Shown here piece by piece: positions 7,392-39,445 of a stretch of DNA of 64,000 nucleotides (within the stretch, counting starts at the first letter, position 1; the number at the start of each line of letters is the position of its first letter). The DNA is from Escherichia coli (GTDB lineage: Bacteria > Pseudomonadota > Gammaproteobacteria > Enterobacterales > Enterobacteriaceae). The notes beneath the pieces were generated by a model, which saw nothing but the letters and a program-made list of their open reading frames with translations, made no database searches and was not told where the DNA came from. The stretch lies in assembly GCF_044324875.1 (NCBI RefSeq), contig NZ_CP172185.1; one strand, written 5' to 3'. Made by a program: the position numbers and the translations under genes.

Positions 7392-10028
7392 TTAACGACA
7401 TTCAGCTGATAGCTGGGTTAATAACTGCTGCTGACTCTCTGGTGGCAGTTGATAATTGGCGACACAGTGAGCATTTTCCTCTTCTCCCCATTTCACCTGA
7501 ACTTTTCCCGCTAAAGGCATTCCGCTGAGGTAAACCTGACCATTATCCGCAACAATGCCGCTACTCTGGCTACTCTCTGATGTCACCATCGCCCCAAACG
7601 GCAGCGGCTTATTATTGTGGGTTAGCGTCATGAGCAGTTTTATCCCAACGCGCGCTTTAAACTCTGCTCGCACGATCGCCCCACGGGTGGGAACAACGTT
7701 AGCGACCGCGTTATCTAAATCGACGTTATCAGCCAGGGTATTGGTATCCAGCGCTACTCTGTTTTCCCGATACTCAGTGGCATAAGGCAGCACGGCATAA
7801 CCACGCCAGTCGGTACGCACCCCCGTCTGGTTTTCGACTTTTGCATCTTTTGCGCCAGGCGCTTTAACAAGCACCACCGTATCGTTTAACGGCTGCCCCA
7901 GCGTTACGCCATTGGCATGAGCCAGTACCCCACCGCTGACTCCGTAATAGAGCTGCTTAATATCATCGCTATGGCTGTAACCGATATTGGCATTGCCGTA
8001 ACCACCGCGATAATTCAGCGTGGCGTAGCCTGTACTTCCGCTATTACCATCGCCTCCCCCGGCATAGCCGGTTTGCACGCTATAGCTGAGGTTGTTGTCT
8101 TCCAGCAACGTACCGTATACGCCAGCCAGATTGGTCATCCGACCGTTGAGATCGTGTGACATGCTGTAGCTGGCACTGGCATGTCGCCACTGAGATTTAC
8201 TGTCAGAACGCAGCCAGTGGCTGAAAGGAATATTGACGTTAAGCGCTAACATCTGATCCCGTCCTTTTTGCCAGGCGTTTTTCGTCAGGCTATAGCTGAG
8301 CGTCCAGTTGATATCTTCGAATGCAGTATTTAAACCAGCCTGGAATTGCTCATCGACATTACTCGTTCCCCAATAAGTTTGATGGCTACCACTCAAATAC
8401 AGTGTTGATGTGCGCCCGAGTTGCTGAGTAACGGTGAGTTGTAATTTCCCGCGTTTGTTATAAGCGAGATTGTAATAGTCGGTGAATTTCGGCTTAACCT
8501 GAATAACACCATCCTGTGTTTCGATGTTGTAGCCATTCATTCGACTGTATGTTGTATCAGCGAAATTAAAATACCCACTGGTCGAATAACGGTAACCCAC
8601 TAACTGAATATTCGTGCCTGATTCATTGAGCGATTTGTTATAGAGAAAACGCACCGATTGTCCGTCATGCTGACTGTCATCGGGAAGTGTGGAATTAGCC
8701 TGCGTCATATCCACAGACAGAGCGCCCAGTGCCCCCATGTTTTTCCCGATACCGAAATTAAAAGCACGATAACGATCCGCCAGTTGCGTTCCACCATATA
8801 TTGTCCAGCCAGCCGGAAGGCCGTGGAGTAATGTACTCTGGAAAAAGCGGGGTTTTTCCTGCTGCGCATTTCCACTGCGGTATTCTCCTGCCGTAATGGA
8901 ATAACGAGTATGCCCTTCACGTTGCAAAAGCGGGACTGACGAATAGGGTACGGTAAAGATCTGCGTGCTGCCGTCAGCCTCTTTAATCGTTACCTGCAAG
9001 TCACCACTATTACCTGCGGCATAGATATCGTTGATGGTAAAAGGCCCCGGCGGCACCGTACTATTATAAATGTCATACCCATTTTGTTTAATAGTGACCT
9101 GTGCAGTACCACGAGCAATACCGTGGATCACCGGGGCAAATCCTCTTTGGCTATCGGGTAACATATTGTCATCTGAGGCCAATTGTGCGCCGCGAAAGTT
9201 AATACCATCGAAAATATCGCCCTGGGTATAACCATCACCCAGCGTCAGCCGGGAACGTAACGGAATTATGTCTCGCTCAAGCCAGGTATTGATATGCTGC
9301 CATTTATTTTTGCTACCTGATGAACTGTCGCTACTGTTATAACTCCAGGTGGTATTGTCGCGTAAACGCCACGCACCAATATTTAGCCCACTCTGTAGGT
9401 TTAAATAAGCATAATGGCTGTTACTACCAATCCGATTCTGTACACTATTTCCGCTGAAATTATAATTGAGCAATCCGGCATTAATACCGGGATCCCACAA
9501 CTCAGGAGGAATATATCCACGCGCGCGATTACTCATAAATGCCTGAGGGATCGTCAGGTTGAGTCGCTGCTGACCAACATCCAGATGCGCAGTAGCGTCA
9601 TGGATCATTGAGGTTAATGGCACGCAGGCATCATCCGCCAGCAAATTCATACCGGAGACAGAAGCCGTATTCAGCCCCATACCGGCAAGTTGCGCGCGTG
9701 TCAGGCAGGGAACAATCCCTTGTTCACTATCGCCCGTATTAAATGTGACATCACGCGTTGCCATATAACCATTATTCAAATAGATATCGACACGATACGT
9801 CCCTGGCGGTAATTCTTGCCCATTCTCAAAACGCGATAAATCAGCCACAGCCTGGGGATCATCCGCTAAAAAAAGCGGGTTAAAATAGAGTTCGGCAGAT
9901 GACAAAGGTGCCTGTGCGGCAAAAGCACAAGCAATAAAGAACCGGACAAAAAAACCAGCCAAACGATGCTTACGAATATGCAAGCATTGTGTGTTTCGCT
10001 GGTAAAGTCTTAAATTCAGATATGACAT
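7392..10028 (-). CDS. fimD: Type 1 fimbrial outer-membrane usher FimD
   Basis: 878-aa ORF recognised as chaperone-usher pathway usher. Confidence 0.9.
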   Translation of the reverse strand: MSYLNLRLYQRNTQCLHIRKHRLAGFFVRFFIACAFAAQAPLSSAELYFNPLFLADDPQAVADLSRFENGQELPPGTYRVDIYLNNGYMATRDVTFNTGDSEQGIVPCLTRAQLAGMGLNTASVSGMNLLADDACVPLTSMIHDATAHLDVGQQRLNLTIPQAFMSNRARGYIPPELWDPGINAGLLNYNFSGNSVQNRIGSNSHYAYLNLQSGLNIGAWRLRDNTTWSYNSSDSSSGSKNKWQHINTWLERDIIPLRSRLTLGDGYTQGDIFDGINFRGAQLASDDNMLPDSQRGFAPVIHGIARGTAQVTIKQNGYDIYNSTVPPGPFTINDIYAAGNSGDLQVTIKEADGSTQIFTVPYSSVPLLQREGHTRYSITAGEYRSGNAQQEKPRFFQSTLLHGLPAGWTIYGGTQLADRYRAFNFGIGKNMGALGALSVDMTQANSTLPDDSQHDGQSVRFLYNKSLNESGTNIQLVGYRYSTSGYFNFADTTYSRMNGYNIETQDGVIQVKPKFTDYYNLAYNKRGKLQLTVTQQLGRTSTLYLSGSHQTYWGTSNVDEQFQAGLNTAFEDINWTLSYSLTKNAWQKGRDQMLALNVNIPFSHWLRSDSKSQWRHASASYSMSHDLNGRMTNLAGVYGTLLEDNNLSYSVQTGYAGGGDGNSGSTGYATLNYRGGYGNANIGYSHSDDIKQLYYGVSGGVLAHANGVTLGQPLNDTVVLVKAPGAKDAKVENQTGVRTDWRGYAVLPYATEYRENRVALDTNTLADNVDLDNAVANVVPTRGAIVRAEFKARVGIKLLMTLTHNNKPLPFGAMVTSESSQSSGIVADNGQVYLSGMPLAGKVQVKWGEEENAHCVANYQLPPESQQQLLTQLSAECR

Positions 10029-28766: not shown

Positions 28767-30262
28767 ACCTCGAACCCTTCTTTGATAAGCAGGGCCTCCA
28801 GCTCCTCTTCTGCTTTTTCCAGCTCAGCCAGCTTCCGTTGAAAATCTTTGAGCGCTTCTTCCACAGTAATGGTTTCTTCTTCGAGTGGCTTTTGCACATA
28901 ACGAGCAATATTTAGATTGAAGTCATTTTCTTCAATCTCCTTCAGAGGAACCCAGCGTGCAACGCCTTCGATTTCTTTTGCATCTGGCCCTTGTTGCGCC
29001 TGGTCATGATAGATTTGGTATATTTCATCGGCCTGCTTGTTGGACAGCGTATTCTGCGCACGCCCCTTGGTATAGATTTCTTCAGCATTGATGATCAATA
29101 CATGATCTTTATGCGCTGCCGGACGTGATTTACGCAACACCAAAATACACGCAGGAATCCCAGTCCCATAGAACAGGTTGGAAGCAACACCAATAATCGC
29201 CACAATGCGATTCTCTTGCAGTAATTTGGTTCGAATTGCCCCCTCTGCGCCGCCACGAAACAGCACACCATGAGGTAATACGACAGCCATACGTCCATTG
29301 TCGTTAAGTGAAGCAAACATATGCTGCACCCAGGCAAAATCACCATTTGTTTTAGGCGCCAGGCCATATCGCTTACGGCCATAGGGATCGTTCGACCACA
29401 GATCGTATCCCCATTCTTTCAAGCTAAACGGTGGGTTGGCAACAACGCAGTCAAAGGTTTCTAAACGATCGCTTTTTAAAAATTTAGGTTCGCGTAACGT
29501 ATCCCCTCGGACAATATCGAAATCTTCCTGTCCATGCAGGAACAGATTCATACGCGCAATAGCTTCCGTCGTTAAGTTCTTTTCCTGACCCTTGATTTTT
29601 AGTAAACGCGGATCACCACCATTTTCTTTTACATGGTGGATGGTCTCAAGCAGCATACCACCGGTACCACAGGCGGGATCGTAGACACTCTCACCGGCTT
29701 TTGGATCAAGAATGTTAACCATCAAACGAACGATAGTTCGTGGGGTATAGAACTCACCGGCTTTCTTATTGGCTTTGTCTGCAAAGCGTTTGATCAGATA
29801 CTCGTATGCGCGCCCCATATCATCGTCACGGACACTAGAAACGCCAAGGTTCACCTTATTGAAGTGATTGAGTAACGTAGCCAGTAACTCATCAGAAAGG
29901 CGTTCTTTATTGGTCCAGCTGGCATCGCCAAAAATGCCATGCAGTTTAGGGTTTGCCAGTTCTATACCACGGAAGGACTCTTTTAAAGCCTGACCGATGT
30001 CCTTGGTCTCAGCGAAAACATCGCGCCAGTGGCAATTTTCAGGTATCTGAATACGGTGAAACATCTTGCCCTTGGCAAGCTCTGCATCCCCAATGCTCTC
30101 CATCGCATCGGCAAATTCTTCGTCATACACGTCACAAATGCGCTTGAAGAACAGGATGGGGAAAATGTACGTTTTGTAATCTGACGCATCAATGGGCCCT
30201 GTAATAATATGGGCTGCATGCCATAGATGGGCCTCGAGATCTTTTAGGTTAATCAGTGTCAT
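28763..30262 (-). CDS. hsdM: Type I N6-adenine methyltransferase subunit, paralogue 1 (HsdM)
   Basis: Start chosen at MTLINLKDLEAHLW (ATG 30260-30262); GEFYTPRTIV, YDPACGTGGML, NPPF motifs; 499 aa. Confidence 0.9.
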   Translation of the reverse strand: MTLINLKDLEAHLWHAAHIITGPIDASDYKTYIFPILFFKRICDVYDEEFADAMESIGDAELAKGKMFHRIQIPENCHWRDVFAETKDIGQALKESFRGIELANPKLHGIFGDASWTNKERLSDELLATLLNHFNKVNLGVSSVRDDDMGRAYEYLIKRFADKANKKAGEFYTPRTIVRLMVNILDPKAGESVYDPACGTGGMLLETIHHVKENGGDPRLLKIKGQEKNLTTEAIARMNLFLHGQEDFDIVRGDTLREPKFLKSDRLETFDCVVANPPFSLKEWGYDLWSNDPYGRKRYGLAPKTNGDFAWVQHMFASLNDNGRMAVVLPHGVLFRGGAEGAIRTKLLQENRIVAIIGVASNLFYGTGIPACILVLRKSRPAAHKDHVLIINAEEIYTKGRAQNTLSNKQADEIYQIYHDQAQQGPDAKEIEGVARWVPLKEIEENDFNLNIARYVQKPLEEETITVEEALKDFQRKLAELEKAEEELEALLIKEGFEV

Positions 30263-30505
30263 TGTTGTCTCTTTTCGATCCTGCAGTGCTTGAACTCTCA
30301 GCAACTCATGGATTTCACAGTAAAAAAGCAAGTAAAGCGATTCCACAACCACCTGAGCGTTCAATATGTATGACGCCTTTACCCAAGTTGCTTAAATCAA
30401 GGAAATTGCCTGAGATAATACTCTGGCATCAGAATGATACCAAGTTGAAGGGCTGATTTCCGCATCAATACCTTGTGGTAATAGGGGATTACTCTTTTAC
30501 CCTTA

Positions 30506-31156
30506 TTGGCGCAAAATGGCGGCATTTCCTCATTTCTCCTTCGGAGCATCTTACGCGCTATAACCACTCTCGTTTTTTCCTATTCCCATGCAGATGAAGC
30601 ACTACGCAATGAACTTGAGAAGCATCTCTCCCCGCTGAAGCGAACCGGGAAGATCACAACATGGCACGATCGCCGCATCGTTCCTGGTCAGGAGTTCGAA
30701 CGTCAGATCGACCACTATTTTTCGCAAGCAGATATCATCCTGATCCTGATCAGCAGTGACTTTATTGCTTCTGATTACTGCTATCAGGTAGAGATGAAAA
30801 ACGCACTGGAACGGCATGACCGGGGCGAGGCGGTGGTCATTCCGGTAATTTTAAGAAACTGTGCATGGCATCAGTTAGAATTCGGCAGCATTATGGCGGC
30901 GACTATCGACGGTAAACCCATCACTAAGTTTGCCACCCACGATGAAGGCTACGTTCAGGTCGTCGAGGCTGTCTCGCGTGCCATTGCCCGGATGGAAGCC
31001 AAAAAACCACAGCAAACCATACATATCCCTTCACCGGCTCCGGCGAATCCGATCTTTCAGGGAGTAGATTCCGTTTTTACACCGTGTTCAAGCAACCTTA
31101 TTCTATCTGTTATAGCCAGGATAATGTTGTTCGAAACAGTATTAACGAAACTCTAA
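30506..31156 (+). CDS. TIR-domain protein (ThsB-like, single-domain); start codon uncertain (TTG)
   Basis: LVFSYSHADE...ADIILILISSDFIASDYCYQVEMKNAL matches bacterial TIR core motifs; no in-frame ATG upstream of the TIR beta-strand, and no clear ribosome-binding site. Confidence 0.6.
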   Translation: MAQNGGISSFLLRSILRAITTLVFSYSHADEALRNELEKHLSPLKRTGKITTWHDRRIVPGQEFERQIDHYFSQADIILILISSDFIASDYCYQVEMKNALERHDRGEAVVIPVILRNCAWHQLEFGSIMAATIDGKPITKFATHDEGYVQVVEAVSRAIARMEAKKPQQTIHIPSPAPANPIFQGVDSVFTPCSSNLILSVIARIMLFETVLTKL

Positions 31157-32231
31157 GCCTTGCTGATAACAGCCAGACTCTTGGTTTTCGTGCTCTGATG
31201 GGAGGCTTCAGTCGTGGAACTTCACGAGACGAACTATTGACCAATGAAGGTATGTCGGAACATCTCTGGGAAATGTTCTTCGGGCTAATCAAGCAAAGAA
31301 TGTCCCGATAATTTGCCATATCACAGTCGGGCATACTGCCCGATTTTTGTGCTGTCATTATTGGCAATATCTCAATAGGCGTTGAGAAATGGTGCAATTT
31401 AATCTTGCCAGAGCGCTGTTACTTGGGGACGAAATTAATGGGCTCCTGCTGTAGTTACATCAACGCCTGTCTATACAAAAACAGGCGTAGCAAATTCATG
31501 CAGGCAAATACGTTTTCTTAAGCGGCACCAATAGCTTAGTCTCTATATCCACTTGCTCATAGTTTTCCACTAACGCGCGTACCAAATCATCCAGCGTCCA
31601 TAGCGTCAACGGGATTGTAGAACGATCGGCCTCATAACGCGCATCCTTGCTGAATCCGCCGGTACTAACATACAGCCCGCGATCGTCTTTATGGCGGCCA
31701 CCGATAAAGCTACGGATTTGCTGGCTGCTCATCTGTTCCCGCCGGTGCTTCACCTCAACAATAATGCGCGGATTTTCAAACCCAAATCCGTCAGGGGAAG
31801 CAATGATATCTTTCCCACGGTCAGCACCCGCAGGCGATACCTGAGTTTTATATCCCATGCTACGTAATACGCCAGCGACCAGATTCTGCATCTCATCCCA
31901 GTCGAGACGGTTGATACGATCCTTGATGCCTTCAAAAGCAATCATTTCCATGTCGCGCAGAGGATTAGAAACAACCTCATCCTCTTCACCTGAAACAGGT
32001 ACTTCCGGCACGACATCTGAGACAGGCTTTTTGCCCTGCACTAATTCATTCACGGCAAAATCAGGCACCTGAAAAACTGTCAGCGTTGAGCCAAGGGTGT
32101 TTCTGGTTGCATCACTCAGACTATCGCGCTTAATCTCTTCCGTATTCCACTTCACTTTACGGGCGATGCCCATGCCATCTTCAAGCCACTCGGCATGAAA
32201 CTCAAAATCTGAGGCAATTTTCCCTATTAAA

Positions 32232-33515
<1,284 letters not shown>

Positions 33516-33893
33516 TCCGATTAGAAGGTGAATAAGTGATAGCCCAATCGCCTTTCTGCATTTCATTCACAAAGCGCCAAACCTGAGAAGCACCAGAGCG
33601 AACTGTGCCTGGCTTAGTCTGTGGCTCAAGCTCCTGATACCGGATAAACAACTGCTCTCTTGAGCATCCAGGTTTCACATAGGGAGCGAGCTGCGACCAA
33701 CCAATTGCAACAACCTGTTTGTCTCTGAAGTCGTCGTACAATTTTCCGCCATCACCGCGGATCATCCACATCTTAGTCGCCACAATAATTCCTTCTGAAA
33801 ATACTTCATCGTTATACCGGGACGTGATCATTCCATTCAGCCACCTTATCCAGGGGAAAAACACCGATAAGATGGCTAATCAAAATGTCTGTT

Positions 33894-36800
33894 CTAAACC
33901 TGACGCCTATCAAGACTATTATAAATAGCCTCAATCTCACCTTTCAGGTTATCACCAGAGTAAACCATCGATGTATCGTATCGTTCATATCGCGCTTCCC
34001 GTGTCGCACTAAACCAGTTGAACGATCCCACGCATAGCAAACCATCATCACCAATAACAATTTTGCTATGAACACGGTTTACCAGCTTTGTAGCAATACC
34101 CAGCGCATTCAGTTTCTCCAGCGCCGCTTTAAGGTTCTGCTGCTTCTCTTTTCGCTTCTCAAAATCTTTATGTTCAGTGTTATAGCTTCTGTCAGTGACT
34201 ATCGTGACGTTAATTCCACGTGAACACGCCGCAATCATGGAATCAAGAAAACCCGTTTGCTCCAGCTTTTGCCAGGTCAGCCATGGAGAAACTATCGTGA
34301 TGTGTTTATCGGTATTTTCAAACGTCTGATTCAGGAAATTATCATGCTGCTCCACACCATGGAGTGTGTAGATTTTGGTCTCGGAAGTTTTTAAATCCTT
34401 ACGCTCTTTATAATCAAAAGAGAGCGCATTCTTCTCGGACTCAAAGAGATATTTTGCCAGTAATCCCCGCGGAGATGAGGCTGGCTGGATCTCAAACAGG
34501 TCCATATCGCCGAAGACCAGGAAACTGTCCTTCGCACGGGAGACAGCAACGTTCAGCATGCTGTTATCGCTATCAATAAACCCGCCATCCTCATGCTTTG
34601 AATAGACTGGCGAGAATATAACAATCGCTCTTTCCGCCCCCTGAAGAGAATGCACGGTGCCCACGGTGAGCGACGTTTCATTCGCGCCTGTACTGATGCC
34701 TTGTTTACCCAGCGCCTGTTTGATAGTCGATACCTGCGCGCTAAAAGGCGTCACGATACCGACAACTTCATGAAGCGATTTGCCGTAATGCGCTTCAATA
34801 TCTTGCTGGTTATCTGTCAGCCAGGCAGCTATCGTTTCAGCCTCAAGCAAATTATATCGACTTCCGCTACTTGCCAGCGCTCCTTTACCATCAATATGGA
34901 GATAACCCATTGCGGGCATTAAATTGCTCTCTTCACGCCCTCTTTTAGGCAACAACTTACCGTGATAGCAGAGCGTATTACAGTATCCAATAATATTATC
35001 GAAGCACCGGCGGTGTTCATATAGGTACATACCACGAGCCAGTTCGGGATCATATTGATAGCGCGAAGCAAACTGAGCTATTTTCATAACGCTGCCAGAT
35101 GCGGCACTTTTACCAAGGTCTGCGATTGCCGTATATTTCTCGGTAATCTCTTCTTGCGTACTGCCAGACAGAATTTTTTCCGCCAGCATGTTACCGATAT
35201 CAATCGCAGGAGCAATACTCCATATTGGCGGGATCTGCTCCGTATCGCCAATCACTAATGCCTTCTTAGCTAATGCAAACGAGGCAGCAGCCACTTCAGG
35301 AAGCACCTGTCCGGCTTCATCGACAATGAGTAAATCGGCAAAATCATACAAATAACTTTTCTCGAATTTACGTTGTCCTTTGTGCTCACTTATCTGCATA
35401 TTGCCGGGCAGCATATAGCATGTCATCACCACACATGGAATGAGTTTCATTCGACGTTGCCAACGGGCAGTTACTCCTTTAGCGCCTTTTTTCTTCTTCT
35501 CTTCCTGCAGATCATCAATTCTGGCCATATCCATCAGCCAACGACCTTCCCAGTAGTGAGTCGTCAGTAAAAATGCAGGGAAGCGAATCTGCGTATCAGC
35601 CAGTTCATCGGCCTGTGAGAAGCTCAGTTCCTCGTCGCCCTCATACCCTAAATCAAGTGTCAGCCTCTGCCACTCCTGAACCGCCTGCTGTTCTTTAAGA
35701 ACGATTTCATGGGCGGAGTCAATCTGCTTCCGGTATGTTGTTTGCTCGCGTTCAGCGGAATTGAGCAGCCCATCAATATTACGTTCGATAGTTTCAGGAT
35801 CAGACCACTGATTTCCTGCAATCAGCGCGCCTAATTTATCTTCGAGAAACAGCTGTATTTGGTACTGTCGCTTATTGCGAACCGCCGGGAGCCAGGAAAA
35901 TAATGAATAGATCAGTGATTCACCGGCGCGATATTTTTTCCATTCCGTTTTAGCACTCTTCAGTAGAGTAACTTTTTGTTCTTGCCCGGAGAGTAATTTA
36001 TTTAAATTATCGAGATATTGCTCAATGTTATCAGCAATAAGCTCACGCGCCGCCCGAACCTGGCTTAACGTTTGCCATGTTGCGTTCAGTCTTATCAGTT
36101 GCTCGGATTTTGCTGCCAACTGACCATGCAGGAGTTCAATGACCTTTTCAGGGGATGAACACTCTTTTTCAGGAAAGGCTGCCTTAGCCTTCTCCAGATA
36201 AAACAGCAGTGCATCCTCTACATACTCTTTTGACTCAACCTGGTTGAAGAAATCTTCAGTTTGATATTTTTTGGCGGCCTCAGCTTTACGAGTGCTTGAG
36301 GGAAAATAAGCGCCGAAGCTTTTCAGCTCTGGCAACCATCGTCCGGCCATCGCACCGGTGCCCTGGGAAAAATCTTTCCCGAACGCCTCGATAATGTTCG
36401 TGACAGCCTGGTTATTCGTTGAGGTCGCGATAATGACCGGAGGCTCAGATTTTTCGAGAGCCGCTCGGGCCCACTGCGTGGCGATGATAGAAAGCACCAG
36501 CGTGGTTTTTCCGGTTCCCGGAGGGCCATTAACAGCAAGGATATCGCCATGTCTGGCATCCAGAAAATGGCTTAAGGCATCGCGCTGAGCCTTTGCCAGC
36601 GGAAACTTATCTCCGGAGTGTCCAAGCCTGTCGCTGAATTTTGCTCCTGGGGCCAGCAAAGACTCTGCAGCATGAACCTCTCGCGAGGCGAAGCGATTGA
36701 AGAGTGGCACATCCTTCTTGCAAACAAGCAGGTGATCATAAAGCGAAAGGATATGGAAACTGGCACCGCCAGATTGCGCCGTTTTAACAATATAACCGTG

Positions 36801-37409
36801 CTCAGCGAGTTCATATTGCTCAGGATTTTTAATCCAGTCGCCGGCAACGTTCTTCAGCAGCCTCTCTGAATCATCCAGATATTGACGCCAATCCTGCTGC
36901 AAGGCTGCATATCGTGCTTCCCGTTCTTCATCCGTTTCGGCAGTGTTATCAACGCTGTCATCAAACTTGATAGAGAATGACGTATGTGTCGTTTTATATT
37001 TGTCATACTGCTCAATCTCACCAATCGAAAATGCCCCTTTTGGCAAAGGTTCAAGCAGGTCTCTGGGAATGGAGGTCGCTGGCGTCGGGTATAAAAAACC
37101 CTCACGGCTTAGCAAGGCTGGCGTCACTAGCGGGGTAACAATATCAGGCACGCCTGCGGAACGGTCCTTACCATGCTGCAGTAACCGAAAATAAACTTTT
37201 GGGCGCAAGACGACATCGACCGTTTCGACATCGTCTTTTTCTCCCTCAAAAAATTTACTGACAATCGCTTCGTCAAGACGTCCCGCCGCTATCCCATGCC
37301 AGTGAGTGAAATTTTGGGCGTCTTTCCGTTCAAAGCTGCCCTTTCCTGACTCAGCATCCGCAAGCGAGTTGCGCCAGTATGAGGCAAACCCTAAAGCATT
37401 TTCATCCAT
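33894..37409 (-). CDS. SF1 (Upf1/DNA2-like) helicase fused to a C-terminal PLD-family (HKD) nuclease domain; Mokosh type II-like single-protein defence candidate
   Basis: 1171 aa; Walker [11 protein letters not shown], Walker [10 protein letters not shown], motif [19 protein letters not shown]; C-terminal [19 protein letters not shown] (HxK-x4-D-x6-GSxN). Confidence 0.8.
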
Positions 37410-39360: not shown

Positions 39361-39445
39361 TGGTGCCGAAGGCCGGACTCGAACCGGCACGTATTTCTAC
39401 GGTTGATTTTGAATCAACTGCGTCTACCGATTTCGCCACTTCGGC
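39361..39445 (-). tRNA. leuX: tRNA-Leu (anticodon CAA), leuX
   Basis: 85-nt sequence GCCGAAGTGGCGAAATCGG...ATTCAAAAT...GGTTCGAGTCCGGCCTTCGGCACCA on the - strand; anticodon loop contains CAA; encoded CCA end. Confidence 0.9.

Follow-up and report, generated by a model that had tools for sequence, protein, structure and literature searches.

What does a TIR-domain gene represent that stands in a bacterial defence island without an ATG start codon and without any partner effector at its side? This question is raised by an open reading frame of 216 amino acids that the ORF list of our window (the entire stretch of 64,000 nucleotides of Escherichia coli DNA analyzed here) begins at a TTG codon (positions 30506-31156, plus strand). 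The window derives from the E. coli chromosome and covers an island located between the fim/nan genes and a tRNA-Leu gene, with a set of defence genes comprising hsdR, hsdS, hsdM, a second hsdM, the TIR gene, an Mrr-like gene, a helicase-PLD gene and an HNH endonuclease gene. The Type I hsd operon (hsdR, hsdS and the two hsdM genes) is encoded on the minus strand, and about 300 bp separate hsdM from the divergently oriented TIR gene, which is flanked on its other side by the Mrr-like gene; the intact E. coli allele introduced below occupies the same position. Our data make it highly probable that the locus is a pseudogene of a 327-residue TIR-Y4lF defence gene which has suffered a change of its start codon from ATG to ATA, the loss of a downstream ORF, a 232-bp deletion and several missense mutations.

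The start of the TIR reading frame

Profile searches bear out the TIR core motifs that had been noticed in a first-pass annotation of this DNA, as residues 24-131 of the window ORF match the Pfam families TIR_2 (E = 4.1e-14) and TIR (E = 7.1e-08). The open stretch of the TIR frame is preceded by an in-frame stop codon (TAG, 30482-30484), and between it and the first TIR strand this frame contains a single ATG, GTG or TTG codon, namely TTG 30506. The earlier statement that this sole start lacks a clear ribosome-binding site likewise stands: the nearest purine-rich run (GGGGA, 30484-30488) lies approximately 17 nucleotides upstream of the TTG, which thus has no usable Shine-Dalgarno site. A simple promoter scan of the plus strand upstream of the TIR gene yielded no sigma-70-like site, and an Rfam scan of positions 30000-31700 gave no credible match. 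The features to which we refer in the following are all located on the plus strand.

30506-30508 (+): TTG, sole canonical in-frame start, 18 codons 5' of the family N-terminus (sequence)
30543-30546 (+): GGAG, Shine-Dalgarno-like, 13 nucleotides upstream of the ancestral start (sequence)
30560-30562 (+): ATA at the position of the ancestral start, ATG in relatives (alignment of homologues)
30563-31003 (+): TIR domain, family residues 2-148, with the E78 codon at 30791-30793 (Pfam TIR_2; AlphaFold)
31004-31103 (+): predicted disordered linker and beginning of the Y4lF domain, as far as the deletion junction (pLDDT <50 for residues 152-171)
31103-31104 (+): junction of the frame-shifting 232-bp deletion (alignment with the intact allele)
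31104-31156 (+): out-of-frame tail of 17 residues, with TAA at 31154-31156 (translation)
31105-31311 (+): last 68 Y4lF codons and stop, out of frame (translation compared with the intact allele)
31325-31345 (+): terminator-like hairpin with a T run behind it, immediately 3' of the original stop (consensus match only)
31389-31454 (+): 21-codon remnant of a 102-residue ORF (alignment with relatives)

An alignment of homologues, which the first-pass annotation had called for to locate the true N-terminus and any frame break, places both: the family N-terminus falls at 30560-30562, and the reading frame is broken by a 232-bp deletion. The aligned homologues begin with M-T-T-L-V-F-S-Y, their methionine stands opposite codon 30560-30562, and position 2 of the PADLOC ThsB profile aligns with the residue that directly follows this ATA. 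In Salmonella (loci L003-L008, 95% protein identity) and in Serratia (L009-L012), the start codon is ATG, whereas ATA is present in the window and in both E. coli reference alleles (L001 and L002). The ATG was read as DNA in these 10 Salmonella and Serratia loci, and a methionine is found at the same position in the further genera that were aligned. Since Salmonella and Serratia have their ATG exactly at the E. coli ATA, we read the missing start codon as a point mutation from ATG to ATA. Over 30545-30605, the 100 complete E. coli genomes with the locus show no difference, and ATA is consequently fixed in the E. coli lineage of this gene.

The ribosome-binding site can be assigned in the same manner. 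GGAG is found 13 nucleotides in front of the ATA, and Serratia possesses AGGAG 11 nucleotides upstream of its ATG; judged from these spacings, the site is that of the ancestral start rather than of TTG 30506. In the Salmonella allele, the upstream frame ends at a TAA whose position corresponds to 30515-30517, so that the 18-residue extension from the TTG is, by this comparison, peculiar to the E. coli lineage. We considered whether the opening of the TTG frame (TAA to AAT) had compensated for the lost ATG and set this idea aside; with four to five substitutions over approximately 55 bp, we estimate that such an opening would arise by chance in about one case in four. An upstream ORF of 15 codons (30516-30563; MAAFPHFSFGASYAL) overlaps the ATA codon with its TAA stop, and the TGA of the equivalent Salmonella ORF overlaps the ATG (ATGA). 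Translational coupling through this ORF was also rejected, as it has no Shine-Dalgarno site of its own and is missing in Serratia; the arrangement is probably due to chance.

Programmed initiation at non-AUG codons does occur in bacteria, as in infC and pcnB, which start with AUU. The non-canonical start of the TIR gene is not conserved among its orthologues and is restricted to the E. coli lineage. The first-pass annotation had considered a non-canonically initiated TIR NADase; as a design, this finds no support, given the ATG that Salmonella and Serratia possess at the position of the E. coli ATA. In E. coli reporter systems, initiation at AUA reaches about 1-2% of that at AUG (bioRxiv 10.1101/063800). 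At least 1000 contigs carry the intact ATA allele with its frame open, and between it and the ATG allele omega is 0.14; the ATA (or the TTG) may therefore yield enough protein, and the start mutation alone may not inactivate the gene. The intact E. coli ATA allele might hence be functional at low expression. The automated PGAP annotation begins the truncated allele at the TTG and the intact allele at the ATA, and its calls at this one locus (L001, L002, L099 and L101) comprise a TTG product of 216 residues, an ATA product of 327 residues, a TTG product of 237 residues and a pseudogene. Clarification of such inconsistent calls among strains is one practical benefit of the present analysis.

A 232-bp deletion and further signs of decay

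In other E. coli strains, the same locus carries an intact gene of 984 bp that encodes a protein of 327 amino acids (WP_024179470.1). Outside of a single gap, the window and this intact allele share 98-99% DNA identity. According to the alignment, 232 bp corresponding to codons 182-259 of the intact gene are absent from the window at 31103|31104, with only TA as microhomology at the junction. As 232 is not a multiple of three, the reading frame is shifted: 17 foreign residues follow the junction and end at the TAA codon 31154-31156, while the original last 68 codons together with the original stop persist out of frame at 31105-31311. The part of the Y4lF domain that has been lost comprises its first helix and its first three strands, and the window copy accordingly has no complete in-frame C-terminal Y4lF domain.

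These findings explain the 75-residue ORF that overlaps the 3' end of the TIR frame in another frame (31084-31311), which had been noted before and is indeed present. Translation of 31105-31311 agrees with the C-terminus of the intact allele and of its homologues, and by this match the small ORF is recognizable as the stranded original C-terminus of the TIR-Y4lF protein. The earlier suggestion of a frameshifted longer protein was thus right in that the 75-residue ORF belongs to one, and it missed the cause, which is a deletion of 232 bp and no simple frameshift. What had been taken for a possible short undescribed C-terminal region is instead the leftover of a domain of about 150 amino acids that Pfam has named (PF27176, Y4lF).

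Could the deletion with its frameshift be an artefact of sequencing or assembly, with the ORF of this strain being intact in reality? The sole point in favour of this view is the prior suspicion raised in the first-pass annotation. The identical junction is found in 40 independently assembled complete genomes that represent two SNP backgrounds, and the exact 216-residue product is present on at least 708 public contigs; the segment missing from the window was recovered in 59 complete E. coli genomes. The deletion is therefore an allele and no sequencing error, resequencing is unnecessary given the recurrence of the junction in the 40 complete genomes, and we regard an artefact as next to impossible.

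Other lesions accompany the deletion. When the Salmonella allele is taken as the outgroup, five substitutions fall on the window branch, none of them synonymous (N87D, D100N, R176C, T181I and G282S), and two fall on that of the intact E. coli allele, none of them non-synonymous. R176 and G282 are invariant among the close relatives (alignment A5), and R176 is at least 90% conserved over 63 wider relatives; its exchange turns the motif PRSSNL at the start of the Y4lF domain into PCSSNL in the window. Small as it is in number, this pattern of substitutions points in the direction expected for decay. A separate lesion is found in eight or nine other E. coli genomes, in which a 1-bp deletion leads to a 237-residue product (WP_001469515.1); one of these genomes additionally carries an insertion of ISEc23. 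In strain PCN033, whose allele is the same as that of the window, PGAP has flagged the gene as 'frameshifted; internal stop'.

The region 3' of the gene has been eroded as well. In seven of 25 enterobacterial loci, the TIR gene is followed by a conserved ORF of 102 residues (L003, 9061-9369; L014, 8986-9306; L019-L022 and L027, about 9018-9377). A deletion of approximately 335 bp that is common to all E. coli alleles compared has removed this ORF except for the 21-codon remnant listed above. The hairpin at 31325-31345 is kept as a sequence in the aligned Salmonella allele. The 102-residue ORF has no Pfam or PADLOC match and occurs in about 30 protein clusters only, several of them on the same contigs as TIR-Y4lF genes. 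We rejected it as an obligatory partner of the TIR protein, since it is present at just seven of the 25 enterobacterial loci and in 30 clusters and matches neither Pfam nor PADLOC.

With these data at hand, one can weigh the possibility that the window encodes a functional TIR NADase whose translation, from TTG 30506 or ATA 30560, is deliberately weak and whose truncated TIR-only product is the working form. The window ORF does retain its TIR domain with an intact E78, the ATA allele is fixed in E. coli, the truncated allele persists across many strains, and E. coli has no counterpart of the Salmonella stop codon in the upstream frame, which places the TTG in frame. However, the other genera examined all possess an ATG and a full Y4lF domain under strong purifying selection, the last 68 codons can no longer be translated behind the out-of-frame deletion, the five substitutions of the window branch are without exception non-synonymous and affect invariant residues among others, several independent disruptions have occurred in E. 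coli, and the TTG lacks a Shine-Dalgarno site. We consider a gene designed for weak translation improbable, and it is very unlikely that the window allele is functional.

A pseudogene of TIR-Y4lF ancestry with the following history explains our data best. The ancestor was a single protein of 327 residues carried in defence islands, in which a putatively NAD+-cleaving TIR domain at the N-terminus was joined to Y4lF at the C-terminus. Within this island's E. coli lineage, the start codon then changed from ATG to ATA and most of the small downstream ORF was deleted. The sub-lineage of the window next experienced the 232-bp deletion, by which the first helix and three strands of Y4lF were taken out and the frame was shifted, and missense changes accumulated after this event. 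At most, the present locus would give rise to traces of a TIR-only protein of 198 residues (from the ATA) or 216 residues (from the TTG), and we infer that it no longer defends the cell. RefSeq labels the product of this common degraded allele as a TIR-domain protein, and one strain is annotated as carrying a frameshifted pseudogene; the window gene is an ordinary pseudogene of a catalogued, experimentally uncharacterised defence gene.

The intact TIR-Y4lF family and its relation to Thoeris

The intact allele encodes a single protein of 327 residues in which an N-terminal TIR_2 domain (PF13676) is joined to a C-terminal Y4lF domain of about 150 amino acids (PF27176); RefSeq labels it as a 'toll/interleukin-1 receptor domain-containing protein'. 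About 120 close homologues with lengths of 321-329 residues are found in Salmonella, Serratia, Yersinia, Enterobacter, Klebsiella, Pantoea and other genera, and with omega values of 0.05-0.16 the family is under strong purifying selection. In comparison with these proteins, the window copy lacks codons 182-259, is frameshifted, carries ATA for ATG and has five extra missense changes.

AlphaFold models the full protein with a mean pLDDT of 87 and predicts a TIR fold for residues 1-148 (pLDDT about 90-97), a disordered linker (residues 152-171) and a C-terminal domain composed of a long helix, six strands and a final helix; when modeled alone, the Y4lF domain reaches a pLDDT of 91 and a pTM of 0.84. 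In alignments, E78 stands opposite the conserved glutamate of Cat1, 7UXR and AbTir, and it is at least 90% conserved over 63 relatives. We take the glutamate of the AbTir 'NYEL' motif, to which E78 corresponds, to be the catalytic residue. The window ORF has kept both the N-terminal TIR_2 domain and the glutamate at the catalytic position.

When the Y4lF domain alone was used as the query against 1.84 billion representative proteins, 725 proteins were matched, and the domain was C-terminal in all of the best 150 listed. Most Y4lF proteins are TIR fusions of about 320 residues or fragments of such fusions, and a few have other N-termini, namely a CHAT protease, a CAP12/Pycsar-type TIR or a GGDEF domain. 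Given this C-terminal position behind varied N-terminal domains, the distribution suits a regulatory, sensor or coupling module that would be carried by interchangeable effector domains. A literature search for 'Y4lF' returned no result. The mechanism that we favour for the intact family is one in which Y4lF would serve as a sensor or coupling module that keeps the TIR domain inactive until a phage cue is perceived; the TIR domain would then assemble and either consume NAD+, leading to abortive infection, or produce an ADPR-derived signal.

The combination of a TIR domain with a second domain in one polypeptide has precedents in the single-protein TIR systems TIR-V, TIR-VI as well as TIR-IX of E. 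coli, and in other TIR-effector fusions such as TIR-SAVED, TIR-STING, Cat1 and SPARTA. The TIR proteins of E. coli form 64 clusters, 32 systems were put to the test, and TIR-V and TIR-VI, like TIR-IX, require the TIR active site, with phage portal or tail fibre proteins triggering their toxicity (Wang et al. 2024, PMC11350192). TIR-V and TIR-IX can be superimposed in their C-termini but not in their N-termini (PMC11350192); in TIR-Y4lF proteins, the TIR domain is N-terminal.

How does this family relate to Thoeris, of which the first-pass annotation had suspected a decaying remnant? The gene in the window is decaying, as proposed; its resemblance to Thoeris is one of an HMM match, with no ThsA located beside the family members that were examined. 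With the PADLOC ThsB model PDLC00420, the intact allele gives a full-length match (2e-153) and the window ORF scores 3.4e-89, and this whole-length match of the intact allele indicates that the model represents the TIR-Y4lF family itself. Thoeris comprises a ThsB-type TIR protein, which produces a gcADPR or His-ADPR signal upon infection, and an adjacent ThsA, in which a SIR2 or TM/Macro effector domain is combined with a SLOG/Macro sensor of the signal. A ThsB-type TIR protein is present by PDLC00420, and an adjacent ThsA is absent. With ThsB of Thoeris, the family shares a TIR domain with a glutamate at the catalytic position, the full-length match to the PADLOC ThsB model and the location in defence islands; it differs by the missing ThsA in the contexts examined and by the extra Y4lF domain present in every TIR-Y4lF member that we examined.

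One could nevertheless envisage a remnant in the strict sense, in which a signal-producing ThsB-type TIR protein has outlived a ThsA effector that vanished from the island, and both PDLC00420 scores fit such a history. Yet, in 10 contexts of relatives with Pfam annotation no ThsA, SIR2-SLOG or Macro gene adjoins the TIR gene, no ThsA-type cluster recurs among the neighbours at 86 loci from many phyla, and none is annotated in the E. coli island. The solitary state of the gene, divergent from hsd and without a SIR2, SLOG or Macro partner, had been described correctly: no such protein is annotated over approximately the first 53.7 kb of the window, which align to the near-identical strain M7424. 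Moreover, the TIR-Y4lF gene exchanges its neighbours as a single unit. A lost ThsA strikes us as even less probable than a gene built for weak translation. Because no ThsA is found beside any family member examined, the absence of a partner is normal for the TIR-Y4lF family and forms no part of the decay. Defence-system finders will score the locus as an orphan ThsB.

Genomic neighbours of the TIR-Y4lF gene

Of greater interest than the pseudogene is the wider family, a widespread and strongly conserved group of single-gene TIR proteins whose position tracks Type I restriction-modification, BREX and retrons. The defence neighbours found for it comprise Type I R-M, BREX, MkoC, RosmerTA, SoFic and retron RT genes. 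A Type I R-M or BREX operon lies within the fetched flank at 32 of 89 loci, a count made over phylogenetically non-independent loci and without a control family. The three recurrent settings are represented by the following loci.

Type I R-M operon: L002, L003, L014, L018-L021, L023-L025, L031, L034, L035 and L041
BREX operon: L037-L040, L042, L044, L102 and L103
Retron RT: L051, L052, L053, L055, L057, L059, L072 and L074 (in L074, 1375-2265 and 2286-3209)

In the Enterobacterales, the TIR-Y4lF gene directly adjoins hsdM or hsdR in divergent orientation, at a distance of 207-299 bp and with three kinds of Type I operon. In another clade, it is inserted within BREX operons, on the same strand between pglX and pglZ, at seven loci from six genera (Pseudomonas, Pseudohongiella, two Halomonas, an Osedax symbiont and Marinobacter) plus L102. 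At one further BREX locus, it is divergent from brxR. A retron RT gene (PADLOC RT_VI, 4e-84; 296 amino acids) precedes the TIR-Y4lF gene on the same strand, with about 20 bp between the two, at eight loci of Alphaproteobacteria, seven of them from Rhodobacterales and one from Erythrobacter; this arrangement suggests that the retron uses TIR-Y4lF as its effector.

These placements allow a testable idea about the wiring of layered defence. By analogy with other systems, the intact TIR-Y4lF protein might act as a 'guard', a back-up effector that DNA-modification-based immunity and retrons have recruited, an idea that we put forward tentatively and regard as rather unlikely for the time being. PrrC is embedded in the EcoprrI Type I locus, and its placement resembles that of TIR-Y4lF next to Type I hsd genes. 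PARIS shows the same genomic placement in BREX. In both cases, the likeness is one of context only and involves no relationship in sequence or fold. If the guard reading were true, Y4lF would couple the TIR NADase to the failure or inhibition of its partner, for instance by Ocr-like anti-restriction proteins, and the E. coli copy would be a decayed guard beside an hsd operon that is still intact. In a survey of BREX accessory genes from 2026, the word 'TIR' is absent from the main text (PMC12839542). The TIR-Y4lF family merits experimental attention.

Several observations on the remainder of the island may be added. The 1171-residue helicase and phospholipase-D protein encoded at 33894-37409 (minus strand) corresponds over its full length to PADLOC MkoC of type II Mokosh (E = 0), and this defence gene, located two genes from the TIR pseudogene, seems to be intact. 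The Mrr-like restriction endonuclease gene, which matches PADLOC PDC-S02, is interrupted by a 1.28-kb insertion (32235-33512) that splits it into pieces at 31496-32173 and 33418-33864; it is unbroken (990 bp) in strains M7424 and 2016C-3878. The inserted element encodes a transposase-like ORF of 326 residues (32340-33320, minus strand), which we judged from its protein sequence to be IS110-like. Compared with M7424, the window is also devoid of an 11.6-kb P4-like satellite next to the tRNA-Leu gene (a gap in the pairwise alignment at about 39361-39380 of the window), and in M7424 this satellite carries integrase, primase-helicase, psu, gop, beta and sce7726-family genes.
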